53,767 nucleotides of DNA. It comes from Leptospirales bacterium. Lineage in GTDB: Bacteria; Spirochaetota; Leptospiria; Turneriellales; JAOUFE01. Under the pieces are notes generated by a model that worked only from the letters and a program-made list of their open reading frames with translations, was not told the origin of the DNA and made no database searches. This document shows positions 7,365 through 52,201 of this stretch, piece by piece. Position 1 is the stretch's first letter. The number at the start of each line of letters is the position of its first letter. A program made the position numbers and the translations under genes. Location of the stretch: positions 36,569 to 90,335 of the forward strand of contig JBEQLE010000006.1 in the NCBI GenBank assembly GCA_040326155.1, written 5' to 3'.

Positions 7365-8528
7365 ATGGAAATAAATTGGAAAAAAATATCTAGCGAGTTT
7401 CCGATCAACCGTAAAAAGATATGGCTGAATAACTGTGGGGTCTGCCCGCCACCCGATTTTGTAAGTAAACGAATGAAAGCTTATCTCGATGACTACGCGC
7501 AAGAGCTGTTTTTATCTCAAAATTTTAATTATGCCAAAGCCAAAGCAAACATAACCAGTCATCTTTGCAAGTTAATTGGCTGCCAACCTATGGAAGTAAC
7601 TCTGTTGCATAATACCGCTGAAGGCATGAATAATATTGCCCAGGGCCTTGATTTTAACAAAGACGATGTCATTCTAATTGTGGAAGATGAATATCCGAGT
7701 AATGTGTATCCATGGGCCCGTTTGTATAAACAAAAAGGGGTGTTGGTAAAATTTGTACCCATTGAAAGAGACCCTGAAAGTTTTTTAAAGGGACTGGAAA
7801 AGACGATCGATGAAAACAAGAAGAAAAATATTCGCCTCCTTTCCATTTCCGGAACTCACTGGATTACAGGGATGCCTTTCCCCCTTGAAAAAATAGGCCA
7901 ACTCTGTGCGCAGCATAATATCTTTTTCTGTGTCGATGGAGCGCAACTTGTGGGTATGTCTCCTGTGGATGTAAAAAAAATGAAAATAGACTTTATGGCT
8001 TTTTCTGCCTGGAAGTGGTTAATGGGTCCGCTTGGCCTGGGCGCTTTTTACATTAGCGAAAAATTTTATAACGCCATTGAACCCACGTTTATCGGTACCA
8101 GCAGCGTCGTTGACGAGTTAAACCATTTTCCGTATCGTAATAAATTGAAAGATGGCGCCGACAAATTTAGTTTTTCTACCCCGTCTCTGAACGACTGGAT
8201 TCATTTCGACGCTTCACTCGAATACCTGGACAACATTGGCTGGCCGAATATTCAAACCCGTATATATAAATTAGCAGAAATTCTGAAAGAACAATTGATT
8301 GACCTCGGCATGACCCTGCCCTCCGAACGATTTGCCGATTACAATACCGGAATTATCTCAGCAAAAACACCTGCTCTACTCAACACAAAAATAGTAGAAG
8401 CCCTGGAAAAAGAAAATATCTACACCTCAGCGCGAAAAGAGTATGTACGGTTTTCCCCGCATATAAGTAACACGGAAGATCAACTGGCGATAGCTGTTGG
8501 CAAACTTGGCGAAATTATAAAGAGCTGA
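7365..8528 (+). CDS. Aminotransferase class V / cysteine desulfurase-like PLP enzyme
   Basis: HNTAEG, VDGAQ, FSAWKWLMGPLG (PLP lysine), RFSPH. Confidence 0.88.
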   Translation: MEINWKKISSEFPINRKKIWLNNCGVCPPPDFVSKRMKAYLDDYAQELFLSQNFNYAKAKANITSHLCKLIGCQPMEVTLLHNTAEGMNNIAQGLDFNKDDVILIVEDEYPSNVYPWARLYKQKGVLVKFVPIERDPESFLKGLEKTIDENKKKNIRLLSISGTHWITGMPFPLEKIGQLCAQHNIFFCVDGAQLVGMSPVDVKKMKIDFMAFSAWKWLMGPLGLGAFYISEKFYNAIEPTFIGTSSVVDELNHFPYRNKLKDGADKFSFSTPSLNDWIHFDASLEYLDNIGWPNIQTRIYKLAEILKEQLIDLGMTLPSERFADYNTGIISAKTPALLNTKIVEALEKENIYTSARKEYVRFSPHISNTEDQLAIAVGKLGEIIKS

Positions 8529-8530
8529 TT

Positions 8531-8695
8531 ATAAGGAAAGCAGGAATTGACGATAAGGAAGGCAGGAATTATAGGGAGAAGAAGAGAAGAGTATTAGACA
8601 GGATTTACATGATTAACAGGTTAAGAGAAGATTAGTGAATTGAATCAAAAGTGATATTATGATTTTGAACGTAGTTATTCTCTCAAATTATGTTA
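8531..8695. repeat. Left half of dispersed inverted-repeat element (AAGGAAGGCAGGAA arm in two copies, plus GACAGGATTTACATGATTAACAGG 9-mer array)
   Basis: Inverted match to 10283-10359; homologous to 18612-18842 and 28192-28368. Confidence 0.85.
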
Positions 8696-8844
8696 TCGGC
8701 AATAAACGCGCGTTAATACTCGAACTCGCACGTCGTGTGCTCTCAATCTAAAAGAAATATATTTGACATTATATTTTAACTATAAAGACTTCCGTATATG
8801 AAAGTAATCCAACTTAATATATTGAACAACCTTATATTAAAATG

Positions 8845-10037
8845 TTAGCATTGTGCAGGTAGATAAATGAAGTTTACTGCCTTACCTGTAAATGTAGGCG
8901 ATTCATTTTTAATAAGAACTGAAAACTATGTGGTTCTTGTTGACGGGGGCATGAATAAACAACATATACTAAAGTTACTACGCCAAGAAAAAATCCCGAA
9001 TAATCATATTGATTTACTTATTTGCACTCATTACGACGCAGACCACATAAATGGCATAATCGGAATTCTTAAATCACAAAAATACTCATTTAAAGAACTT
9101 TGGTTGCCCGAAATATTAGGTTCAATTGGCTACACTTTGTCAAAAAATATTGGAGAGTTATTTGGCGATCCCAGAAACTATAATTTTTCAATTGAGAAAT
9201 ATCAAACGAATAGCCATTCAGTATTTGACAGATATGAAAGTGAAGAAATAAACGAGGTGTCATCTAGTAATAATTCATTTGAGAAAATTGATAATGACGT
9301 GCTAAGTGGTATTGGCAAAGCCTTCTTTCCTTGGTATGATGAATTATTTTGGAACTTTAATAAAATCAATACAACATCACAATATAAGATGATATCTAGT
9401 GCTAAATCAGTTGCGTCTTTGGTTAGTAATTCTCTAAGTTCAGGTGCATATATAAGGTGGTTTAAATATCAAAACAAAGAAACTCACAAAACATACGGAT
9501 TTAATATGTATTGTGAGAATTCCCTTCAAACAGATATTACTCTTTTTGACAGGGAATTATTCTTCTTAGCTTTATATGAAATATCTTTATCCAAAATCAA
9601 CAAATATAGTCTTGTTTACATGCATAGAAAAGATGAGATTCCAGATGTTCTATTTACGGCAGATTCTGATTTAAACTTTTACTCAAATAAAGTGGCCTTA
9701 AAAAATAACTCAATTATCACTTCTCCACACCATGGTTCATCTGCAAATGATCTGGCATACGCGAAGATTACTGGTGCTAATTTAACATATGTTCGTAGTG
9801 ATAGAAGCCAACAAAACAGACCCGGGAAAGGGTATTTAAATAATCAAAATAAATTTTGCACGATCTGTAGAAATATTACTCAAAAGCAAAAAATAGAATT
9901 TGATTTTAATGGCACAATATTTACCACTAGTGCCAGAGTATGTAACTGCTAACAATTAGCTCCAGTGGACAATTGCAAGCAGTATGTTTTTGAAAACGCT
10001 CAATAAATGTTGCTTTGAATTGCCGTTGAGCAAGGCG
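8845..10037 (+). mobile_element. Integron-type gene cassette carrying the MBL-fold gene
   Basis: Begins at G|TTAGCA (8844-8850), the exact reverse complement of R'' TGCTAAC (9947-9953) that overlaps the stop codon; ends at G|TTAAAA. Confidence 0.85.
8867..9952 (+). CDS. ComEC/Rec2-like metallo-beta-lactamase-fold hydrolase
   Basis: VGDS, LVDGG, THYDADHING, LFTADS and PHHGS motifs; visibly more AT-rich than neighbouring genes. Confidence 0.88.
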   Translation: MKFTALPVNVGDSFLIRTENYVVLVDGGMNKQHILKLLRQEKIPNNHIDLLICTHYDADHINGIIGILKSQKYSFKELWLPEILGSIGYTLSKNIGELFGDPRNYNFSIEKYQTNSHSVFDRYESEEINEVSSSNNSFEKIDNDVLSGIGKAFFPWYDELFWNFNKINTTSQYKMISSAKSVASLVSNSLSSGAYIRWFKYQNKETHKTYGFNMYCENSLQTDITLFDRELFFLALYEISLSKINKYSLVYMHRKDEIPDVLFTADSDLNFYSNKVALKNNSIITSPHHGSSANDLAYAKITGANLTYVRSDRSQQNRPGKGYLNNQNKFCTICRNITQKQKIEFDFNGTIFTTSARVCNC

Positions 10038-10043
10038 TTAAAA
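9947..10043 (+). other. attC recombination site (97 bp)
   Basis: R'' TGCTAAC, 5-nt spacer, GCTCCAGTGGACAATT ... AATTGCCGTTGAGC, 5-nt spacer, R' GTTAAAA; unpaired C and A on the top strand correspond to extrahelical G and T on the bottom strand. Confidence 0.88.
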
Positions 10044-10125
10044 ATGTGAAATAAGTGTCTTATTGCTTCATAGAAACTTCTTCGGCGTCCCTGCCTCATC
10101 AGTGTTTGATTTAATTAGCGTTTAC

Positions 10126-10302
10126 TGCCGATAACAAATTTTGATCTGCTCAGGCGCGCCTTCGGGGTTCGCATTGTTTTATACTTCGAGTTGTATTTTA
10201 CTTTTATAGAGACAGTATATCAATTGTTTTTTTGAAAATGCTCAACCACATTTCGGAACTACCTACGCTTATCCCCGCAGGCTCTCTCAAATCATGTTAA
10301 TC
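10126..10302 (+). other. Long attC-like site of the outer cassette
   Basis: TGCCGATAAC-5 nt-TTGA ... TCAA-5 nt-GTTAATC; partial internal pairing (CTGC/GCAG, GCATT/AATGC). Confidence 0.5.
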
Positions 10303-10359
10303 CTGTAAATCCTGTCCTCTTATCCTCCTCTTTTCCTGTCTCCCTTCCTGCCTTCCTTA
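10283..10359. repeat. Right half of dispersed inverted-repeat element
   Basis: AATCATGTTAATCCTGTAAATCCTGTC ... TTCCTGCCTTCCTTA, inverted relative to 8553-8622. Confidence 0.85.
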
Positions 10360-10397
10360 CAAAAAATATCTCTATAAGCATAAACAGATCTGTAGTG

Positions 10398-10479
10398 CGG
10401 TCGCATTCCGAACGATATACCTGGGAAGATTGTACCTTTACAATTCTAAAATACTGATTGGGTAGACGGCCAAATTATT
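10398..10479 (-). repeat. 82-bp dispersed 3'-end repeat, copy 1
   Basis: AATAATTTGGCCG...GTAAAGGTA...CCAGGT...TTCGGAATGCGACCG; ungapped match to 25674-25755 and 27999-28080. Confidence 0.75.
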
Positions 10480-12526
10480 CGAATTCAGCGATTGCGGTTT
10501 CGGCGGCCATCATGTGTTTCATGGAGCCCCAAAAAGAGAAACCATTTACGCCGGAGTCGTAGGTGGCTTGAATCTGGTCTTTAAAGTACTGCTTTCCATA
10601 GCCCCATAGTTTGGTTTTCATGGGAAAAGCCTGCAGGTAGGGACGAATTACAAAATTTTCTCGGGAAAGGTAAACGCCACGAGATACGCTTCTTTTGATT
10701 AGTTCATAGGTACGTTTTGCAAAAGGGAGATTCGTCATGTATAAATCGCCAAAATGAGAGCTGTATAACATGGGGGATATAACGTCTGCGTGTCTTCCGT
10801 AGGCTTCAATGTCCTGGCCGATTATACCGGATGCTCGGTAGAGTCCATTGTATCCATATACGTCGACGCCGAGTGGAATTTTAATGGCGTTGGACAATGC
10901 ATATAAAAAGTTTTCCATTGCTTCGGAACGATACTGGTCACCTTTTTTATGAGTAAATTTGCATCGGTAGACGCCTCCATCGGAAGGGAAACGAATGTAG
11001 TCAAGTTGAACTTCGTCAATGCCGATTTTTTCAAGTTCTTGAACCAGGGGGATATAATAGTTTGTTGCAATGTCGGAACTGTATGGGTCGACCCATCTTT
11101 CGCCTTCTAAGCCTATCCAGTTTTTTCCAGTTTTTCGATCTTTAATAGCGTACCCTTTTTGTTTGTATAAAACGGGGTCTTTAAAAACAACGATACGCGC
11201 GACTATATATTTATTTAGTTTATGAACTTCTTCAATAAAGCTTCGCAGATCTATGGGTGATTTTACTGCGCCAATTTTTTTTGCATATTCTACTTGTGAA
11301 TTATAGCGAAGGTAACCAAAGTCGTCTTTGACATCGATGACAATACCGTTATATTTGCCCCCGTTTAGTAACTTTAAAATATTCTTTTTTTTGTCTTTAA
11401 AGTTATACGCCGAACTGTAAAACAGTTTTTTACTTTTAGCTTTTTGTATTCGTTTTGCCTTTTGCGCTGTGGGTGGCCTGTAGCGATTATTGTAAATTGC
11501 CGTTAAGCCCGGGTTTTGCTTCGACTCGAACATAAAATAGTGAAGTCTTTGGCCAAAGAATTTTTTATATTCTGACCAGCCATGAAACTTGCTTGTCAAA
11601 GTTTTACCTTCATTATTAACTTTTGAAACTTTAGAAATAATAACTAGACCTGCATCTGTCGAAACCCAAATTGTTTTTTCGTCCGAAGACGTTGAAATAA
11701 AGTTTACGTCGTCAATTTCAGGAGCTTCTTTAGGCCATGGTAGAGCGCGAAAACTTTTGGCACCTTTAGATTTGTAATGGACCGCTCCGTGAATTCCCGA
11801 ACCAATATAAATTGCCCCTGAGGGCCCAATGTGAATTGCACGAACTTCTTCGTATAATCGAATATTTTTACTATGAGAAATATAAGGCAACCCCGTTGCT
11901 GTTTTTTTGAAATAGAGTTTTTTCCTTTTTTTTGCGTTGGAAACCCCGTTTTCGGCTATAAAAAGCCCGTTTAAAGCAGTTCCTATATAAAGATTTTTTC
12001 CATCGGAGGCAAAAGATGTAAATAGTTTACCGCTGGAAATATCGTGTGATACCGTTTTTGACTTTTCAGTTTCTGAACTTTTTTCATTATCCGGTTTATT
12101 TGAAATTTGAGTGATGTGCCCAAAAGATGCCAGACTGTGTTTATGCAAAAGAAAACTTGAATTCAGGTCCAGCCCTATTAATTCTCGAAAGGAATCTTCA
12201 AACGAAACCAGTCTTTTCTGGGCAATTGTAGTTTCTTCTACCTGAAAATTATCAAGATGAATGAAGGTCAATGGTCCATGCATTTTTGCATAAGCAATTT
12301 TACCTGTTGTTAACCTCAGCAAACGTATTCTATCGGAGGACTTAAGCGAAACAACCTTTTTACCAGAATAATAGATACCTCGTTCATCGGCTGATACAAT
12401 TAATTTCAGGGTGTTTTTGACGCTATTTGCCTGAAGCTGGTAACAGGAAAACAGACTCGTGATGCCCAGGAGGCCAAAAAGGCCAACAATATATAAATTG
12501 GTATATTGAAAATAGTTTCGTTTCAT
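10475..12526 (-). CDS. Putative glycoside hydrolase (DUF4015-like) lipoprotein
   Basis: Lipobox-like LFSC; VIDVKDDFG, ARIVVFKDP, DEVQLDYIRFP, SPMLYSSHF, RPYLQAF. Confidence 0.8.
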   Translation of the reverse strand: MKRNYFQYTNLYIVGLFGLLGITSLFSCYQLQANSVKNTLKLIVSADERGIYYSGKKVVSLKSSDRIRLLRLTTGKIAYAKMHGPLTFIHLDNFQVEETTIAQKRLVSFEDSFRELIGLDLNSSFLLHKHSLASFGHITQISNKPDNEKSSETEKSKTVSHDISSGKLFTSFASDGKNLYIGTALNGLFIAENGVSNAKKRKKLYFKKTATGLPYISHSKNIRLYEEVRAIHIGPSGAIYIGSGIHGAVHYKSKGAKSFRALPWPKEAPEIDDVNFISTSSDEKTIWVSTDAGLVIISKVSKVNNEGKTLTSKFHGWSEYKKFFGQRLHYFMFESKQNPGLTAIYNNRYRPPTAQKAKRIQKAKSKKLFYSSAYNFKDKKKNILKLLNGGKYNGIVIDVKDDFGYLRYNSQVEYAKKIGAVKSPIDLRSFIEEVHKLNKYIVARIVVFKDPVLYKQKGYAIKDRKTGKNWIGLEGERWVDPYSSDIATNYYIPLVQELEKIGIDEVQLDYIRFPSDGGVYRCKFTHKKGDQYRSEAMENFLYALSNAIKIPLGVDVYGYNGLYRASGIIGQDIEAYGRHADVISPMLYSSHFGDLYMTNLPFAKRTYELIKRSVSRGVYLSRENFVIRPYLQAFPMKTKLWGYGKQYFKDQIQATYDSGVNGFSFWGSMKHMMAAETAIAEFE

Positions 12527-15336: not shown

Positions 15337-15549
15337 TCTTCCTGCCTTCCTGATCAAAACCCTGAATGTATCCACGAAGAAAGAATTTGACAAGGAAGGC
15401 AGGAAGAAAGGAAAGCAGGAAAAGAAACTAAGATGACAAAAAATGGATAACCACAAAACGCAAATCCCTCCTGTTAATCCTGTTAATCCTGTTAATCCTG
15501 TCTAATTCTCTCCTCTCTTCCTCTTTTCCTGTAATTCCTGCCTTCCTTA
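15337..15549. repeat. Composite copy of the GGAAGGCAGGAA / 9-mer repeat family
   Basis: Perfect 15-bp inverted repeat 15337-15351 / 15393-15407; (CCTGTTAAT)x3 + CCTGTC at 15470-15502; TTCCTGCCTTCCTTA ending at 15549. Confidence 0.85.
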
Positions 15550-15616
15550 GATACTTCTTACGTTGCAAAGTTTGGTTGACGGTGAGTTTGAAAAAGTAAG
15601 CTTATCTACATTATAA

Positions 15617-18611: not shown

Positions 18612-18842
18612 ATAAGGAACGCAGAAATTGCAGGAAAAGAGGGACAAGGAAGAGAAGAAGAAAAAATTTTGACAGGATTTACATGATTTACAGGTTAAGA
18701 AATTAATAGTGATATGAATTTGGAAGTATTATAATATCAGAAAAGGTGTCATATGCTCAACCCATTTTATATCTTAAAATCATGTTCATCATGTCAATCC
18801 TGTCTAACTCTCTTTCTTTTCCTTACCTTCCTGCCTTCCTTA
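18612..18842. repeat. Complete empty copy of the inverted-repeat element (MITE/REP-like)
   Basis: Outer arms 18612-18629 / 18828-18842; inner 9-mer arrays starting at 18671 and ending at 18804; lies between convergent genes. Confidence 0.85.
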
Positions 18843-21095
18843 TTAAACCATCAATTCAGAATCTTGCGCTTTATCTTGCGGTAGACTGAAATTGTGAACA
18901 AGGGCTGAAACTTCATCAAGTACTTCAACGAGGTTCTGCAACAAGGAATCCAGGCTTTCTGACTGGTCCACGTTTTGCGCTGTAATTTCGTTGGCTCGAC
19001 TCATATCTTCCGTAATTTCCTCAGCAGACTGACTTTGCAGTTTTGTCGCTTCGGCGATCTCTCTGGCAAGTTCCGCTACATTCGTGGCCCGCATAGAGGT
19101 TTGAATTACAGCTTCAGATTGTTTCTGGTCAAAATCACGTACAAGAACAATATCTTTTGCCAGTTTATCCATGGATATAATAATTCTTTCGAAAATATCT
19201 TTTGTGGCTGATACCTTGTCCGTACCAAGTTCCACCTTCTGGTTCGCTGTTCGTAGCAGCCTTGCAATCTCTTTTGCTGAAGCGGAACTTCTTTCTGCCA
19301 GCTCCGAAATTTCCTGCGCCACAACTGAGAACCCTTTACCATGCTCTCCCGCTCGCGCCGCCTCAATAGAAGCGTTCAGAGCCAGAAGGTCAGTCTGGTC
19401 TGCAATATCGTTAATAACGTCAATAATACCAAGAATTCTCTGTGAAGTTTCTGAAATTTCCTCCATGCTACGCATAGAAAGTTCCACAGCAGAACCCCCC
19501 GACCTCGCATGCCGCATTGTCTCTTCTGCCTCACCACTAATCTGAACTTGAATATCAGCAGATTTCGTAAACAGATGCTTTAGCTCTTCCATCGCCCTTG
19601 AGTTTGCTTCTGCGCCAGAAAGCTGTTTTTGCGTTGCTTCGAAAATGCTTTGAGTAGACGCAGAAAGCTCTTCAAGAGAGGCCGAGGCTTCTTCTAGAAG
19701 CGCAGCTTGTTCCTGGGAAGATCGAAGTACATCTCTGGCTTTTGCCGAAGCGTCCATCGAAGTTTCAGAAGCCTTTGATCTGGACATTACAAGAGCTTCC
19801 ACTAGTTTTCGCAGGTTAAATACAGTATGATTCAAGTAAAACTGAAGTTTTCCGAGCTCATCGTTTGTTTCCACTCGAACCAGTTTGGTCAGATCACCCT
19901 CCCCGATTTTTTCAATAAGATTCGCAGAACGGTCAATCGGACCTGTAATTTTTCTGGCATAAAGAAAAATAAATATAAGAACAACAACAAGAACAATCCC
20001 GGTAGCAATCGCTGTACCAATGAAGACATCTTTTGTGGCGCTCATAACATCGTCCACGGAAGCGCGAGCGATAATACCCCAACCGGTTCCCGAGAATTCG
20101 TCAAAACCTGACTCTTTTGCAATTGCCGTTAAAAATGGTTGATTTAATCTTTCATGTAAAACTTCTTCATGGTGGGCACCGGGGTTTTCATCAATCCAAA
20201 ATGTAACAAATTCAGAATTTAAATCGATCATGTTGTCTGAAAAAGCGTTGTCACCCCAGATTACCAGGCCGGTCTTATCAATAACTGCCAGCTCAAAAGT
20301 TCCCCATTGTCTTTTTAACATGGTCTTTGCAAAATGATAGATATTATCTAAACGGTCGATCGAAAACGCGTTTACCATACAGCCGATCGTTCGTCCGCCT
20401 TCTCGAATAGGCATTGTAAATAATATATTATACTCAGGCAACCCAAGTTCTGCAAATATAACGGATTTTTTTATTAAGGCGGTATAACCTGGTTTTGTCT
20501 GGCCCGGACTCACACATTCGGTAAACCATTCGTCGTCGTTCACGACTTCCGATTTAGCAGTTAACCATTTCCAGTTTCTGACATTCTTTTTGTATAATGA
20601 AGCTGATGCAAGAGAATCGCCATAATTATCAACGGAATTTACCTGACGAACATTCCCTGCGCGATCAATAATCATAATTAAAGAATATTTCTTGTAAATC
20701 TGCACATACTTATTCAATTTCTGCACGACAGAGGAATTTCTTATTGTATGGACGCCCAGTGTAGCCGCTTGCGTTGAAGCGATTAACTCTACAGTAGCGT
20801 AAGAGTCCAAAAGGCCCTCTGTGGTGGTTTCTCGAATAAGGTTCGCCGCATTTACCATTGTACCTGTAGCAGATACCTTCAAGGCTTTTCGAAATTGAAC
20901 AATACCGATACCACCTACAACAATGGGAATTAATAATGAAATCATTACGAAAATCCAGGCAAGCCGTACTTTCAAAGAAGATGAAGTTTTAAACTTTATA
21001 TCTTCATTGTCTGTCGATTTGAAAGTGAGTAGCCTTCCATCATCGGGAATTTCTGAGTCTTCGTCTAGTGGTTCTTTTGTTTTTTGGTCTGCCAT
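18843..21095 (-). CDS. Methyl-accepting chemotaxis protein (Cache-like sensor, HAMP, MA domain)
   Basis: Two TM helices, [40 protein letters not shown]. Confidence 0.95.
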
Positions 21096-25673: not shown

Positions 25674-25755
25674 CGGTCGAATTCTGAAATGCAGACCTGG
25701 CAATTTATTACCTTAACAACTCTAAAAGCCAGGGGAGTTTGTCGGCCAAATTATT
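25674..25755 (-). repeat. 82-bp dispersed 3'-end repeat, copy 2
   Basis: Ungapped alignment to 10398-10479. Confidence 0.75.
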
Positions 25756-28080: not shown

Positions 28081-28191
28081 CAATAGTCTAAAAACAGATT
28101 CTTTAAAGTTTTCTTTAAAACATCTATAAAGAAAATGAACTACCACGTAGCGATCGTAAAAAGACCGCAGGATTTTTTTACGGACTAATAA

Positions 28192-28368
28192 GACAGGTTT
28201 GACTTGATGAACATGATTTTAAGATATAAAAGGTCCTGAACTTTTTACGCCTTTTCTGATATTATAATACTTCAAAATTCAAATTACTATTAATTTCTTA
28301 ACCTGTAAATCGGTAAATCCTGTCTAATAATTCTTTTTTTATTTTCCTGTCTTCTTGACTTCCTTATA
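28192..28368. repeat. Empty copy of the inverted-repeat element, inverted relative to 18671-18804
   Basis: Reverse complement aligns along its whole length, including the AT-rich spacer, with 18671-18804. Confidence 0.88.
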
Positions 28369-29928
28369 AATTGTTGTTTCTTTCTTTAAATATTTATCAT
28401 TTCGTCGTAAAAATCCTTCTCGGGAAGTATAAGGGTTCCGCCAGGTTCTGTATTTGCCTCTTTCCTTTTCGGGCAAAGATTCTAAAAATGCGTTCCAGAG
28501 TTTTTCGGGTAGCAAGGTGTAAAACCCCGGAAGATACTGAATTTCAGAAGCGTTTTTTCCCAGCTGTTTTTTGTACACTTCTGGACTCACTCCATAGGCA
28601 AGCCGATATATAGGTCGCCCTTCATGCTTTTGTTCAGGTAGAAAATGAAAAGCGTCTTTTCGTTCGGCGTAACAGTAATAGTAGTCAAATCCCTGATGAA
28701 CTATCATAAGGGAATCTTCGGGAAGATTTATTAGTGGCGTGATTTGTGATATCGTACCATAATCTATACCTGCTTTTTTTTCACTGGCAATCTTGTTGTT
28801 ATTCCAGATTCCAAGGGCCAATAAACCGAAAAGTACAAACGGACGAAAACGGGGAATAATAACTATGGAAGACAGACCTAGAAAACCCACCGGTATAAAC
28901 GATAAAAGAAAAAGACGGTACGCCATATCAAATCGGTTAAATTTTAAAAAGGGAAACCATGCCACCAATAACAAACAAAGTGAAACTAAAATAAGAATAT
29001 CCCACTTTATTTTGTCTTTGTATTTAGTTTGTAATCTATACCGACTTACATACTTATAGAAAAATATACCGATTATAAAAACCATTATTCCTGTATCAAC
29101 AACACTCACCAGGTCGTAACCGCGCAATTTCAGATATGAAAACGGAGCCGCCTGGGGAGAAAACGTAAGGGCCTTCCCTACTCTTTCAAAATCTGTTAGA
29201 TGGATAAAATTTGGCAAATAGATATAAGCAGCCGCAAAACCCATAACGAAAAAAGCCATTGCGCCCAGAACCCACCATAACCTTTGTTTAAAAAAATTTA
29301 CGATACGCTCTTTGTGCCCGGTAAAAACTATATGCATTAAAAATACAATTGCTAAAAGTACCGAAATACCCGCCACCAGTTTATGAGACAGGGAACCCAG
29401 AATTAAGAAAGCGGTTATAAATAGATAATCCCTTTTTCGTTTTTCAGCCTTCAATAAAAAGGCCAGATAGAAAATAAAAAATACCAACGCTCCGAAATTC
29501 TTAACAAATTCAAAAGAAAATTGAGTTACCAGTGAGCTGTACCCGTAATAGGCGGCTAATAACAAACCTGAAAATTTATTAATTCGACTACCTGCAAGAT
29601 ACGCGCCAGATAACAATAATGCATTCAGAAGCAGAACAAATATTTTATTCATAAAAACAATGTCATTTCCCAGACGAGAGAAATAGGCCATTGCCGGTAA
29701 TACAATCGAAGAATCTGGCGAGAAGAAACGCCCTTTCGCCCAAAATGACTTTATCTGGGCGGCGTAATAATATCCGTCTATACCAAAAGCATGTTCAGTT
29801 GCAAACAAAGTGCTTGCGCGTAAAAAAATAATAAAACAGATTATAAATAAAAGCCAATACAAGCTATATCGTTCTACGTCAAAAAAATCGCCAGGCAATC
29901 TGCTATTATTTTTACTGTTTTTTATCAT
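28339..29928 (-). CDS. Polytopic membrane protein (possible GT-C-fold glycosyltransferase)
   Basis: Many TM helices; GIDGYYY loop after TM1. Confidence 0.6.
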   Translation of the reverse strand: MIKNSKNNSRLPGDFFDVERYSLYWLLFIICFIIFLRASTLFATEHAFGIDGYYYAAQIKSFWAKGRFFSPDSSIVLPAMAYFSRLGNDIVFMNKIFVLLLNALLLSGAYLAGSRINKFSGLLLAAYYGYSSLVTQFSFEFVKNFGALVFFIFYLAFLLKAEKRKRDYLFITAFLILGSLSHKLVAGISVLLAIVFLMHIVFTGHKERIVNFFKQRLWWVLGAMAFFVMGFAAAYIYLPNFIHLTDFERVGKALTFSPQAAPFSYLKLRGYDLVSVVDTGIMVFIIGIFFYKYVSRYRLQTKYKDKIKWDILILVSLCLLLVAWFPFLKFNRFDMAYRLFLLSFIPVGFLGLSSIVIIPRFRPFVLFGLLALGIWNNNKIASEKKAGIDYGTISQITPLINLPEDSLMIVHQGFDYYYCYAERKDAFHFLPEQKHEGRPIYRLAYGVSPEVYKKQLGKNASEIQYLPGFYTLLPEKLWNAFLESLPEKERGKYRTWRNPYTSREGFLRRNDKYLKKETTIYKEVKKTGK

Positions 29929-51521: not shown

Positions 51522-52201
51522 TTTTTCCTCTTAGGCTTAAACGCATTTATGTAAGCTTGCTTGGGATGCGTTGGTGTGGTTGGAAAGGCCAGCTTTAAGC
51601 TACCATCTTTTTCCATTATTGTTAAATATTGTTTTCTCAAACTATCATTGTTTCGATTGAGAAGTTCAGAAAGTACTTGCAGGGTGATATAACGACCTTG
51701 ACAAAGATCAGCTATTATTTTTTCCATTTCAGGCTTTAAAAGCCGGGGTTTATCTTTTGCTGGTTGAGCTATAACTTGCATACTTTGAGCAATTTCTTTT
51801 GTTAATTCTGCTAGGTTGTCAACGATTCCGAACTTTAAACTACTTGAAATCAAATAGCCTTCTTTAGAACGTTCAGAATATTCATGCGTATCCTCAAATT
51901 CCTTATACCCGGAGCTCGATTCCTTATGCCCGGAGCTCGAATCCTTATGCCCGGAGCTCGTGTTTATTTCATCACCACCCATTTTGTTTTTTATTTCAAT
52001 AGGCTCCATTTGAAAAGTTTCGTTGTTTTCCCTCAGACCCAGAACTATATAACCCCCGGCAGTATTGGCAAAAGCGGAGTATGTCTCCCAAAAGGTTTTG
52101 GGCAGTTCACCCTTGCCGTCCTTACCGGCAGCGAGTTTGTATTCGAGTTCGAAGCTCTCGCGTAGGGCGACGATATCATCTATGGAAGAGATATTTAACA
52201 T
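51518..52201 (-). CDS. AlbA_2/Schlafen-domain protein, apparently internally deleted (possible pseudogene)
   Basis: ELEYK...WETYSAFANTAGGYIVLG stops after about 65 aa, followed by SSGHK repeats and a winged-HTH-like end (PTHPKQAY). Confidence 0.65.
   Translation of the reverse strand: MLNISSIDDIVALRESFELEYKLAAGKDGKGELPKTFWETYSAFANTAGGYIVLGLRENNETFQMEPIEIKNKMGGDEINTSSGHKDSSSGHKESSSGYKEFEDTHEYSERSKEGYLISSSLKFGIVDNLAELTKEIAQSMQVIAQPAKDKPRLLKPEMEKIIADLCQGRYITLQVLSELLNRNNDSLRKQYLTIMEKDGSLKLAFPTTPTHPKQAYINAFKPKRKK
51900..51960. repeat. 21-bp coding tandem repeat (about 3 copies)
   Basis: TCCTTATRCCCGGAGCTCGA-type units encoding SSGHKD/SSGHKE/SSGYKE. Confidence 0.9.

Follow-up and report, generated by a model that had tools for sequence, protein, structure and literature searches.

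What occupies the 1,946 nt between the stop codons of two convergent genes in the genome of a Leptospirales bacterium, and how could it have arrived there? The stretch analyzed, here called the window, comprises 53,767 nt and is part of contig C138 of assembly GCA_040326155.1, which is referred to as G000 (4.26 Mb in 171 contigs, 39.6% G+C, completeness 94.66%); contig labels C1 to C161 denote contigs of this assembly. The outer shell of the intergenic region is one copy of a palindromic repeat ("PR"), which is split by an insert carrying a long attC-like element ("LAE") close to its end. Probably, this insert (8693-10296) is a solitary cassette that resides in the right PR arm and belongs to an integron-like system served by a tyrosine recombinase of the type encoded on contig C12.

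The insert of 1,604 nt interrupts the PR after TCTCTCAAATTATG, with the final G at position 8692. The left junction reads G|TTATCGGCA and the right junction G|TTAATC (10296|10297), and the sequence TGCCGATAAC is present at 10126-10135. The left junction (G|TT, 8692|8693) is located within a 17-nt direct repeat, TCTCTCAAATTATGTTA (8679-8695, plus strand), which represents the start of the PR right arm and returns with 1 mismatch as TCTCTCAAATCATGTTA at 10283-10299. Removal of 8693-10296 in silico yielded TCTCTCAAATTATGTTAATCCTGTAAATCCTGTC, matching the right-arm consensus of the empty PR copies. The initial annotation had read the region as three nested layers, and these results agree with its middle layer, with respect to the insert ends, the direct repeat at both junctions, and the empty PR layout restored upon removal. 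A look for an empty site downstream of the aminotransferase gene in relatives had also been suggested, and such a site was found when G000 was compared with three other genomes of the family (G001 to G003). In G003, a member of a different genus, the genes for the aminotransferase (46% identical) and the DUF4015 protein (42%) that flank the region are likewise convergent but only 18 nt apart. The PR together with the cassette is therefore an insertion in the lineage of G000.

The G|TT ends of the insert resemble crossover points, as expected of a gene cassette of integron type. The 5' module (8693-8786, plus strand) starts with TTATCGGCAATAAACGC and contains a small hairpin (8728-8740) and a TTGACA sequence (8763-8768); similar starts occur beside the recombinase gene on C12 and at C7:362, C112:7316, C130:1408, C91:2203, and C82:9632. 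The 3' module (10038-10119, plus strand) precedes an end resembling an inverse core, GTTTACTGCCGATAAC (10120-10135, plus strand), which can pair at 15 of its 16 positions with the cassette start at 8692-8707 and is embedded in a wider inverted repeat (8683-8716/10111-10144, 82% complementary). It is followed by the LAE (10136-10282, plus strand; nhmmer score of 138.6 bits), which is truncated on the 3' side: compared with full copies, it breaks off after ...GCTCAACCACATTTCGGAACTACCTACGCTTATCCCCGCAGGC and continues into PR sequence. When position 10296 was joined to position 8693 in silico, as in a circle, the junction folded with −29.4 kcal/mol (z-score of −3.46, none of 200 shuffles being as low), compared to −12.2 kcal/mol (z-score of +0.54) for the same insert ends in chromosomal order. 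The z-score of the circle junction refers to mononucleotide shuffles.

The LAE is not restricted to the window. A profile built from 28 copies and searched with nhmmer produced 84 matches, which were condensed to 72 loci on 49 of the 171 contigs, 45 of them with a score of at least 50 bits. Full copies start with ...YAAC|AAATTTTNATCTGCTCAGG, end with ...TCTCAAAACGTCAGATAAAATTGAAAC|GTTA, and measure 158-287 nt between these border marks; a short form does not contain profile positions 65-131. The R''/R' ends of the LAE fit the RYYYAAC/GTTRRRY consensus; YAAC ... GTTR ends are present, as is pairing between AAATTTTNATCTG and CAGATAAAATT. Most of the 15 full LAEs that were folded adopted a similar structure, with AAATTTT.ATCTG paired to CAGATAAAATT, an unpaired GAAAC, and three hairpins emerging from the center. 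The copy on C7 reached −34.9 kcal/mol (z-score of −3.91), and none of its 200 shuffles was as good. The attC sites of integrons form one hairpin of 57-141 nt, and size and branching of the LAE are atypical for attC. Searches against Rfam found nothing in the window at gathering thresholds, nor in two array loci at E values up to 1.

The circular form of an integron cassette joins its first bases to the inverse core of its own attC site, and the two are complementary for this reason. This footprint was searched for at 47 LAE loci: the 16-nt sequence terminating in AAC was reverse-complemented, and a match at 13 or more of its positions within 4 kb was accepted. Such a match was located upstream of 12 of the 47 LAEs and downstream of 1, with mean values of 11.9 and 10.4 matching positions, respectively; for many of the 47 loci the upstream stretch was short because the contig ends there. 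Within arrays, the match was directly behind the preceding LAE on C7, C161, C140, and, twice, on C106. The paired sequences vary from cassette to cassette, for instance GTTAAATGAAATTGCG with CGCAACTTCATTTAAC or GTTAGACGCAAGATTA with TAATCCTGCGCCTAAC, and the pairing has therefore been maintained rather than copied. Cassette starts complementary to their own inverse cores, as known from integrons, are accordingly a feature of the LAE cassettes. With most LAE sites being dispersed, the system would act as a scattered gene pool instead of a single platform. As a separate observation, an LAE subfamily (C21:190-460, C58, and C81:13080-13180) has the complement of its ATTCTACAGMCTCAAC end only 98-99 nt upstream, delimiting very short units devoid of genes.

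Which enzyme may have mobilized these cassettes? Contig C138, which harbors the window, gave no PF00589 match to a tyrosine recombinase, in agreement with the initial annotation, which had noticed no integrase nearby; an attC-like site with no integrase near it is the arrangement of a solitary attC site or of a cluster of attC sites lacking integron integrases ("CALIN"). Four clear tyrosine recombinases are encoded in the genome. Three look like Xer proteins (XerC/D), and the fourth, of 352 amino acids, is encoded on the 9.6-kb contig C12. Its best NCBIfam model was NF040815 "XerA/integron integrase" with 206 bits (cutoff, 220 bits), and it matched TIGR02249 "integron integrase" with 181.8 bits (cutoff, 265 bits) in two stretches that skipped model positions 185-237. 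Two true IntI proteins used as controls obtained 508.6 and 443.2 bits, each in one stretch. In the alignment with IntI of Vibrio cholerae (2a3v), query residues 267-279, 13 residues in total, take the place of the 54 chain residues 191-244, which constitute the IntI-specific domain, while the C-terminal ...SPL tail is common to both proteins. The C12 enzyme is an IntI relative without the IntI-specific domain, and the IntI that defines an integron is not represented by it. A search for intI-like recombinases, as had been suggested, produced this relative and not a canonical IntI: none of the four family genomes contained a match above the TIGR02249 cutoff.

The position of the gene would connect the enzyme to the cassettes. 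The junction ...CACACAATAAGT|GTTATCGGCAATAAACGCAGAGATT (...AATAAGT|GTTATCGGCAATAAACGC) is found on the opposite strand, about 150 nt upstream of the start of the gene; it carries the same cassette start as position 8692 of the window, C7:362, and C112:7316. After a further 100 nt, the contig breaks. All three other family genomes possess a homolog of the C12 recombinase (42-46% identical) near a contig end, and a GTTA junction with a cassette-type start was situated 150-250 nt upstream of the recombinase gene in all four genomes, again on contigs ending soon after. In an alignment of the four upstream regions (A2), GTTA was invariant, and G000 and G002 both displayed CGCAATACACA-AAT..|GTTAT. 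On the other side of the recombinase gene are housekeeping genes that vary by genome (TrkH, amino-acid kinase, deaminase, UDG, and ribosomal protein S7). An IS91-type element with an attC-targeting integrase was rejected as the source of the enzyme, since the neighbors are housekeeping genes and no IS91-family (Y2/HUH) transposase was found in the neighborhoods in the four genomes.

Some further features of this region may be recorded. Between recombinase gene and GTTA, ACGCAATAC occurs twice on C12 (locus L010:2590-2680), and several TGCGCATAA/TATGCGCAAA motifs are present in G003 (locus L022:1020-1120); these repeated motifs resemble the cassette end ...CGCATAAC and could be putative binding sites. 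A short repeat (GACAATTAGAAATGCCGGTTGACGACAATTAGAATTACCG) is located at several contig ends (the C12 end, C1:23-91, C99, C137, C150, and C82) and terminates the assembly immediately beyond the first cassette start adjacent to the recombinase gene. Joining of C12 to C1 was considered and discarded, as the 69 nt in which they overlap represent one more dispersed repeat found at contig ends.

Relatives of the C12 recombinase were collected in a scan of one genome per species. This resulted in 601 proteins, the nearest being 38-43% identical and originating from metagenome-assembled genomes ("MAGs") of Patescibacteria and one of Firmicutes, many of them at contig ends. In a patescibacterial locus (L027), the gene for an enzyme of 270 amino acids is divergent from two cassettes with sites of about 125 nt, the ends of which read ...CATCAGATATACTGAAAT|GTTAGCC and ...GTATATGCCGAAAC|GTTAGCT. 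In the Firmicutes MAG (L030, 1-5000), a recombinase of 290 amino acids without the IntI domain is encoded beside four cassettes, separated by structured elements that measure about 270-350 nt and have the form TAAC|GCCTATTGGCTAAACG...CGTTTAGCCTGTTG|TTAGG. Signature pairs beside such enzymes were also present at three loci of Bacteroidota (L032, L051, and L060). Cury et al. (2016) report the Firmicutes as being without complete integrons. In an Xer-rooted tree of 38 proteins, which left out L034 (truncated frame) and L073 (identical to L072), the clade composed of the family studied here, L030, and the Patescibacteria was the sister of canonical IntI (SH-aLRT of 90 for the joint node and 100 for IntI, from a quick search with thin sampling).

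These data can be combined into a probable course of events. In this reading, cassettes begin with TTA... directly after a G, and each is followed by a multi-branched LAE of 160-290 nt that starts with ...YAAC|AAATTTTGATCTG and ends with ...CAGATAAAATTGAAAC|GTTA. The C12 tyrosine recombinase, as an IntI relative without the IntI-specific domain, would be the mobilizer. A circular cassette, its start being paired with the 16-34 nt before its LAE, would have been joined by this enzyme to G|TTAATC in the PR arm, which would have been used as a secondary site, and the copy in the window would later have lost the 3' part of its LAE. The PR arm offers GTTAATC, near the GTTRRRY core, several times per copy and is therefore a plausible secondary site. 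We infer that the C12 recombinase moves the cassettes and that the sites act when folded, as well as the order of the events.

Evaluation of this course of events needs to consider the points that speak against it. The LAE in the window does not have the canonical end ...TCTCAAAACGTCAGATAAAATTGAAAC|GTTA, and its fold was no better than chance (z-score of +0.64, with 146 of 200 shuffles equally good). The 17-nt PR direct repeat at both junctions is not predicted by a simple exchange between attC and a secondary site. Covariation in the 8-nt inner LAE stem was weak, with a mean of 4.96 positions pairing with the stem's own partner and 4.43 with the partners of other copies, as determined from 26 rows that included spurious motif pairs, and several LAE copies have mismatched halves. 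Recombinase and cassettes are linked by a single adjoining junction, as the C12 contig ends at this point. Moreover, the IntI-specific domain is described as necessary for the recombination of folded attC sites by Cury et al. (2016). For the window itself, the LAE being cut short at its 3' end and not folding indicates that the cassette is probably decayed, fixed, and immobile.

A second question is the part played by the PR. The initial annotation had proposed that the PR family provides landing pads for cassettes throughout the genome. A PR arm motif was within 100 nt of an LAE at 3 of the 72 loci (the window, C106:12232-12388, and C160:61458-61501) with 1.03 expected (P = 0.078), and within 400 nt at 5 loci with 2.57 expected (P = 0.11); the 304 PR motif hits used for this test included loose ones with two mismatches, which raised the expectation. 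When the outer PR motif was used as the query, further neighboring PRs and LAEs emerged at C106:34334-38355, C156:8819-11018, and C127:32135. Since a PR arm within 100 nt is missing at 69 of the 72 LAE loci and the enrichment was not significant, the PR is not a dedicated landing pad. As to whether filled copies break at the same G|TTA, the window and the site at C106:12.4 kb share an identical 20-nt junction, TCTCTCAAATCATGTTAATC (TCTCTCAAATCATG|TTAATC), but inheritance may explain this agreement. A third dispersed repeat adjoins the right end of the PR at three sites with LAE and PR, behind that end in the window and at C106:12.4 kb and after the LAE, just before the outer PR end, at C106:38.2 kb. 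Shared descent of these sites could account for the common breakpoint, and the junction may have been inherited as one composite block rather than re-created.

This leads to the least unlikely of the alternatives, which treats the PR as the mobile frame, either as a cargo-carrying PR transposon or because homologous recombination spread cassettes between PRs, with the breakpoint being common by descent. The third repeat (TGTAGTGCGGTCGCATTCCGAAC...) beside the PR right end, the shared 20-nt junction, and the PR arms on C106 that flank 6.5 kb with four LAEs would all agree with such a frame. It is nevertheless unlikely, for the duplication of 17 nt of the PR arm at both sides of the insert and the perfect empty PR obtained by its removal fit an insertion into a pre-existing PR, none of the filled copies examined contained a transposase, and most LAE loci are far from any PR.

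Improbable to a slightly higher degree is an ordinary integron, in which case the sites would be CALIN or single-attC ("SALIN") remnants, the true IntI would be unassembled or lost, and the C12 enzyme would be an unrelated Xer-type neighbor. A genome that is only 94.66% complete and distributed over 171 contigs leaves room for this, the R''/R' ends agree with RYYYAAC/GTTRRRY, and CALINs without IntI are common according to Cury et al. (2016). An IntI scoring above the TIGR02249 cutoff was, however, present in none of the four family genomes, at control values of 443 and 508 bits; the domain-less enzyme adjoins the GTTA junction in all four, and its clade is positioned beside arrays in two other phyla. 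Finally, instead of being a recombination site, the LAE might encode a structured RNA or form the end of an unrecognized transposon or miniature inverted-repeat transposable element ("MITE"); LAE palindromes would then be the insertion targets of the "cassettes", as small elements bordered by terminal inverted repeats. The long, multi-branched, and strong structure of the LAE would agree with this, as would one unit each on C106 and C156 that is flanked by oppositely oriented LAEs, so that the inverted ends of the unit could be read as its own termini. This is nevertheless very improbable, given that there was no Rfam match and no associated transposase, that no two units carry the same cargo, that the ends conform to the integron core consensus, and that an IntI relative is located at the unit start in all four genomes.

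A cassette of an integron-like system served by a C12-type recombinase thus remains the preferred explanation of the insert. Whether the genome contains a working system of this kind, with a domain-less sister of IntI, giant branched hairpin sites, and cassettes over dozens of places in a free-living bacterium of about 4.3 Mb, is a further step, which is possible with the balance somewhat against it. Of the "distributed integron" served in trans by an integrase, as proposed initially, the scattered cassettes (72 LAE loci on 49 contigs) and a plausible recombinase on C12 were recovered, while the enzyme is not an IntI and the landing pads were not supported. The reading of the insert as an integron cassette served in trans is largely upheld.

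Comparison with known systems places these cassettes close to sedentary chromosomal integrons and CALINs. Shared are the G|TT starts, a start complementary to the own inverse core, the RYYYAAC ... GTTRRRY ends, a divergent recombinase gene with an attI-like junction, many sites away from the integrase, and single-gene cargo that is in part defense-like. They differ in the enzyme, which has 13 residues where VchIntIA has 54, in sites that are 160-290 nt long and branched instead of being one hairpin, in the unusually scattered cassettes, and in an end complementarity of 13-16 nt or more instead of 7. With Xer proteins and archaeal XerA, the C12 enzyme shares the domain layout without an extra domain, the best solved relative being 4a8e (XerA-like protein of Pyrococcus abyssi, 141 bits). 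Unlike these, it carries an N-terminal extension of 80 residues and the IntI-type ...SPL tail, groups with IntI and not with the Xer proteins of its own genome (SH-aLRT of 90 in the quick tree), and is encoded beside cassettes and not beside a dif site.

The IntI-specific domain is treated as the innovation that enabled recombination of single-stranded folded attC sites by Cury et al. (2016) and in the abstracts of PMC4792948 and PMC7790495. Domain-less recombinases near attC in complete genomes were judged not to be IntI by Cury et al. (2016), and the archaeal IntIs possess the domain according to Ghaly et al. (2022). Full-text literature searches retrieved no description of a domain-less integrase serving cassette arrays, and the system is apparently an unusual, undescribed integron variant. 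In the four family genomes, a domain-less clade adjoins junctions of cassette type, in two other phyla it adjoins arrays, and the cassettes bear the classical footprint of a circular intermediate. If the working system is real, the IntI-specific domain would not be needed for cassette capture, and integration at secondary sites could dominate. If the enzyme is active, it would provide a natural test of the origin of integrons and of the purpose of the extra domain.

Inside the insert, a further cassette with a gene for a metallo-β-lactamase-fold ("MBL") protein had been proposed as the innermost layer, from G|TTAGCA to GGCG|TTAAAA (8845-10037, plus strand), with a hairpin-rich element behind the open reading frame (ORF) as its attC site (TGCTAAC ... 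GGCG|TTAAAA; 9947-10043, plus strand). The motifs themselves are present: G|TTAGCA with its G at 8844, TGCTAAC at 9947-9953, and G|TTAAAA with its G at 10037. The TTAGCA start (8844|8845) and TGCTAAC are complementary over 7 nt, for which the estimated chance expectation in 1.2 kb is about 0.07-0.1, and the stop codon of the ORF falls inside TGCTAAC, a position that is common for stop codons in cassettes. The best fold of 9944-10046 consisted of two local hairpins (z-scores of −1.77 for the top and −3.17 for the bottom strand), a forced long hairpin of attC type was less stable by 5.4 kcal/mol (top) and 7.2 kcal/mol (bottom), and the predicted junction of the inner circle brought no gain in folding (−15.3 versus −15.4 kcal/mol). 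The element behind the ORF had no significant match to the LAE profile.

Contig C130 is of interest in this context. The 3' module recurs there with 80% identity (10034-10098 of the window versus C130:3-67) behind a different gene, starting from the same GGCG|TTAAAAAT, which fits a recurrent junction. C130 contains both the 5' and the 3' module; when it was considered as a second nested case, no start that would complement the inner GCTATAAC was detected in it, and its 5' module ceases to resemble that of the window about 60 nt before 8845. A derivation of the PR center and the inner hairpin from diverged LAEs was rejected, as a 2-kb search with the LAE profile gave negative scores and E values of 0.32 and 0.5, and only 17-nt motifs are common. 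That the nested inner cassette is real is, overall, rather doubtful.

The cargo is an ORF for a protein of 361 amino acids (8867-9952, plus strand), of which the N-terminal 70-80 residues have an MBL fold (PF00753, E value of 3.6e-11) and the remainder has no Pfam match. PADLOC matches, to MBL domains of defense proteins, were confined to residues 1-80 (RTasMBL with 7.5e-17, LmuA, and Avs1a). Most of the 175 homologs are unnamed, and many are encoded on contigs of 1-4 kb. The protein is a putative metallo-hydrolase rather than an established β-lactamase, and a function in phage defense is possible. Other cassettes carry genes for an OLD/AriA-like ATPase, a ParA-like ATPase, and a secreted cysteine-rich protein. 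At C106:5949-12486 (L014), a PR copy is split by 6.5 kb containing four LAEs, one of them inverted, and genes for an OLD/AriA-like ATPase-Toprim protein (587 amino acids) and three unknown proteins. This locus looks like a small defense island built of cassettes.

The genes flanking the PR copy of the window encode a class-V aminotransferase on the left (7365-8528, plus strand) and a DUF4015 protein on the right (10475-12526, minus strand). Directly after the aminotransferase stop codon, a partial extra terminal motif of the PR (AAGGAAAGCAGGAA...; family D8) occupies 8531-8553. The left PR arm (8554-8625, plus strand) is composed of TAAGGAAGGCAGGAA, a purine-rich tract, and 9-mer repeats (GACAGGATTTACATGATTAACAGG), and is followed by the center (8626-8678), which differs among copies in an alignment of 27 PRs. 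The right arm (10283-10359, minus strand) begins with the right copy of the 17-nt direct repeat, contains the G|TT junction at 10296|10297, and ends with TTCCTGCCTTCCTTA. TAAGGAAGGCAGGAA (8554-8568) and TTCCTGCCTTCCTTA (10345-10359) form the outer ends and are inverted copies without a mismatch, and the inner arms (8597-8628/10285-10316) are 84% complementary. With these inverted arms and a dispersed family of copies, the outermost of the three layers was also verified. The inner-arm motif had 116 matches in the genome, forming 27 arm pairs with a spacing of 60-260 nt, and further, empty PR copies are located in the window at 15380-15550, 18613-18845, and 28190-28370.

Judged from its sequence, the PR resembles a MITE: it is short (about 230 nt) and non-coding, has long terminal inverted repeats, and exists in dozens of intergenic copies. 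It differs from MITEs in arms made of 9-mer repeats (ACAGGATTW) that contain GTTAAT, and no parent element or transposase of the PR was identified. The third dispersed repeat of about 100 nt (...TGTAGTGCGGTCGCATTCCGAAC...CCT...CTAAAA...CGGCCA) is located in the window at 10380-10480 and 25674-25755 and in the remaining assembly at C106:12520, C106:34575, and C106:38240. In addition, a 21-nt unit (ATTCCTTATRCCCGGAGCTCG) is repeated three times in tandem at 51898-51960 of the window.

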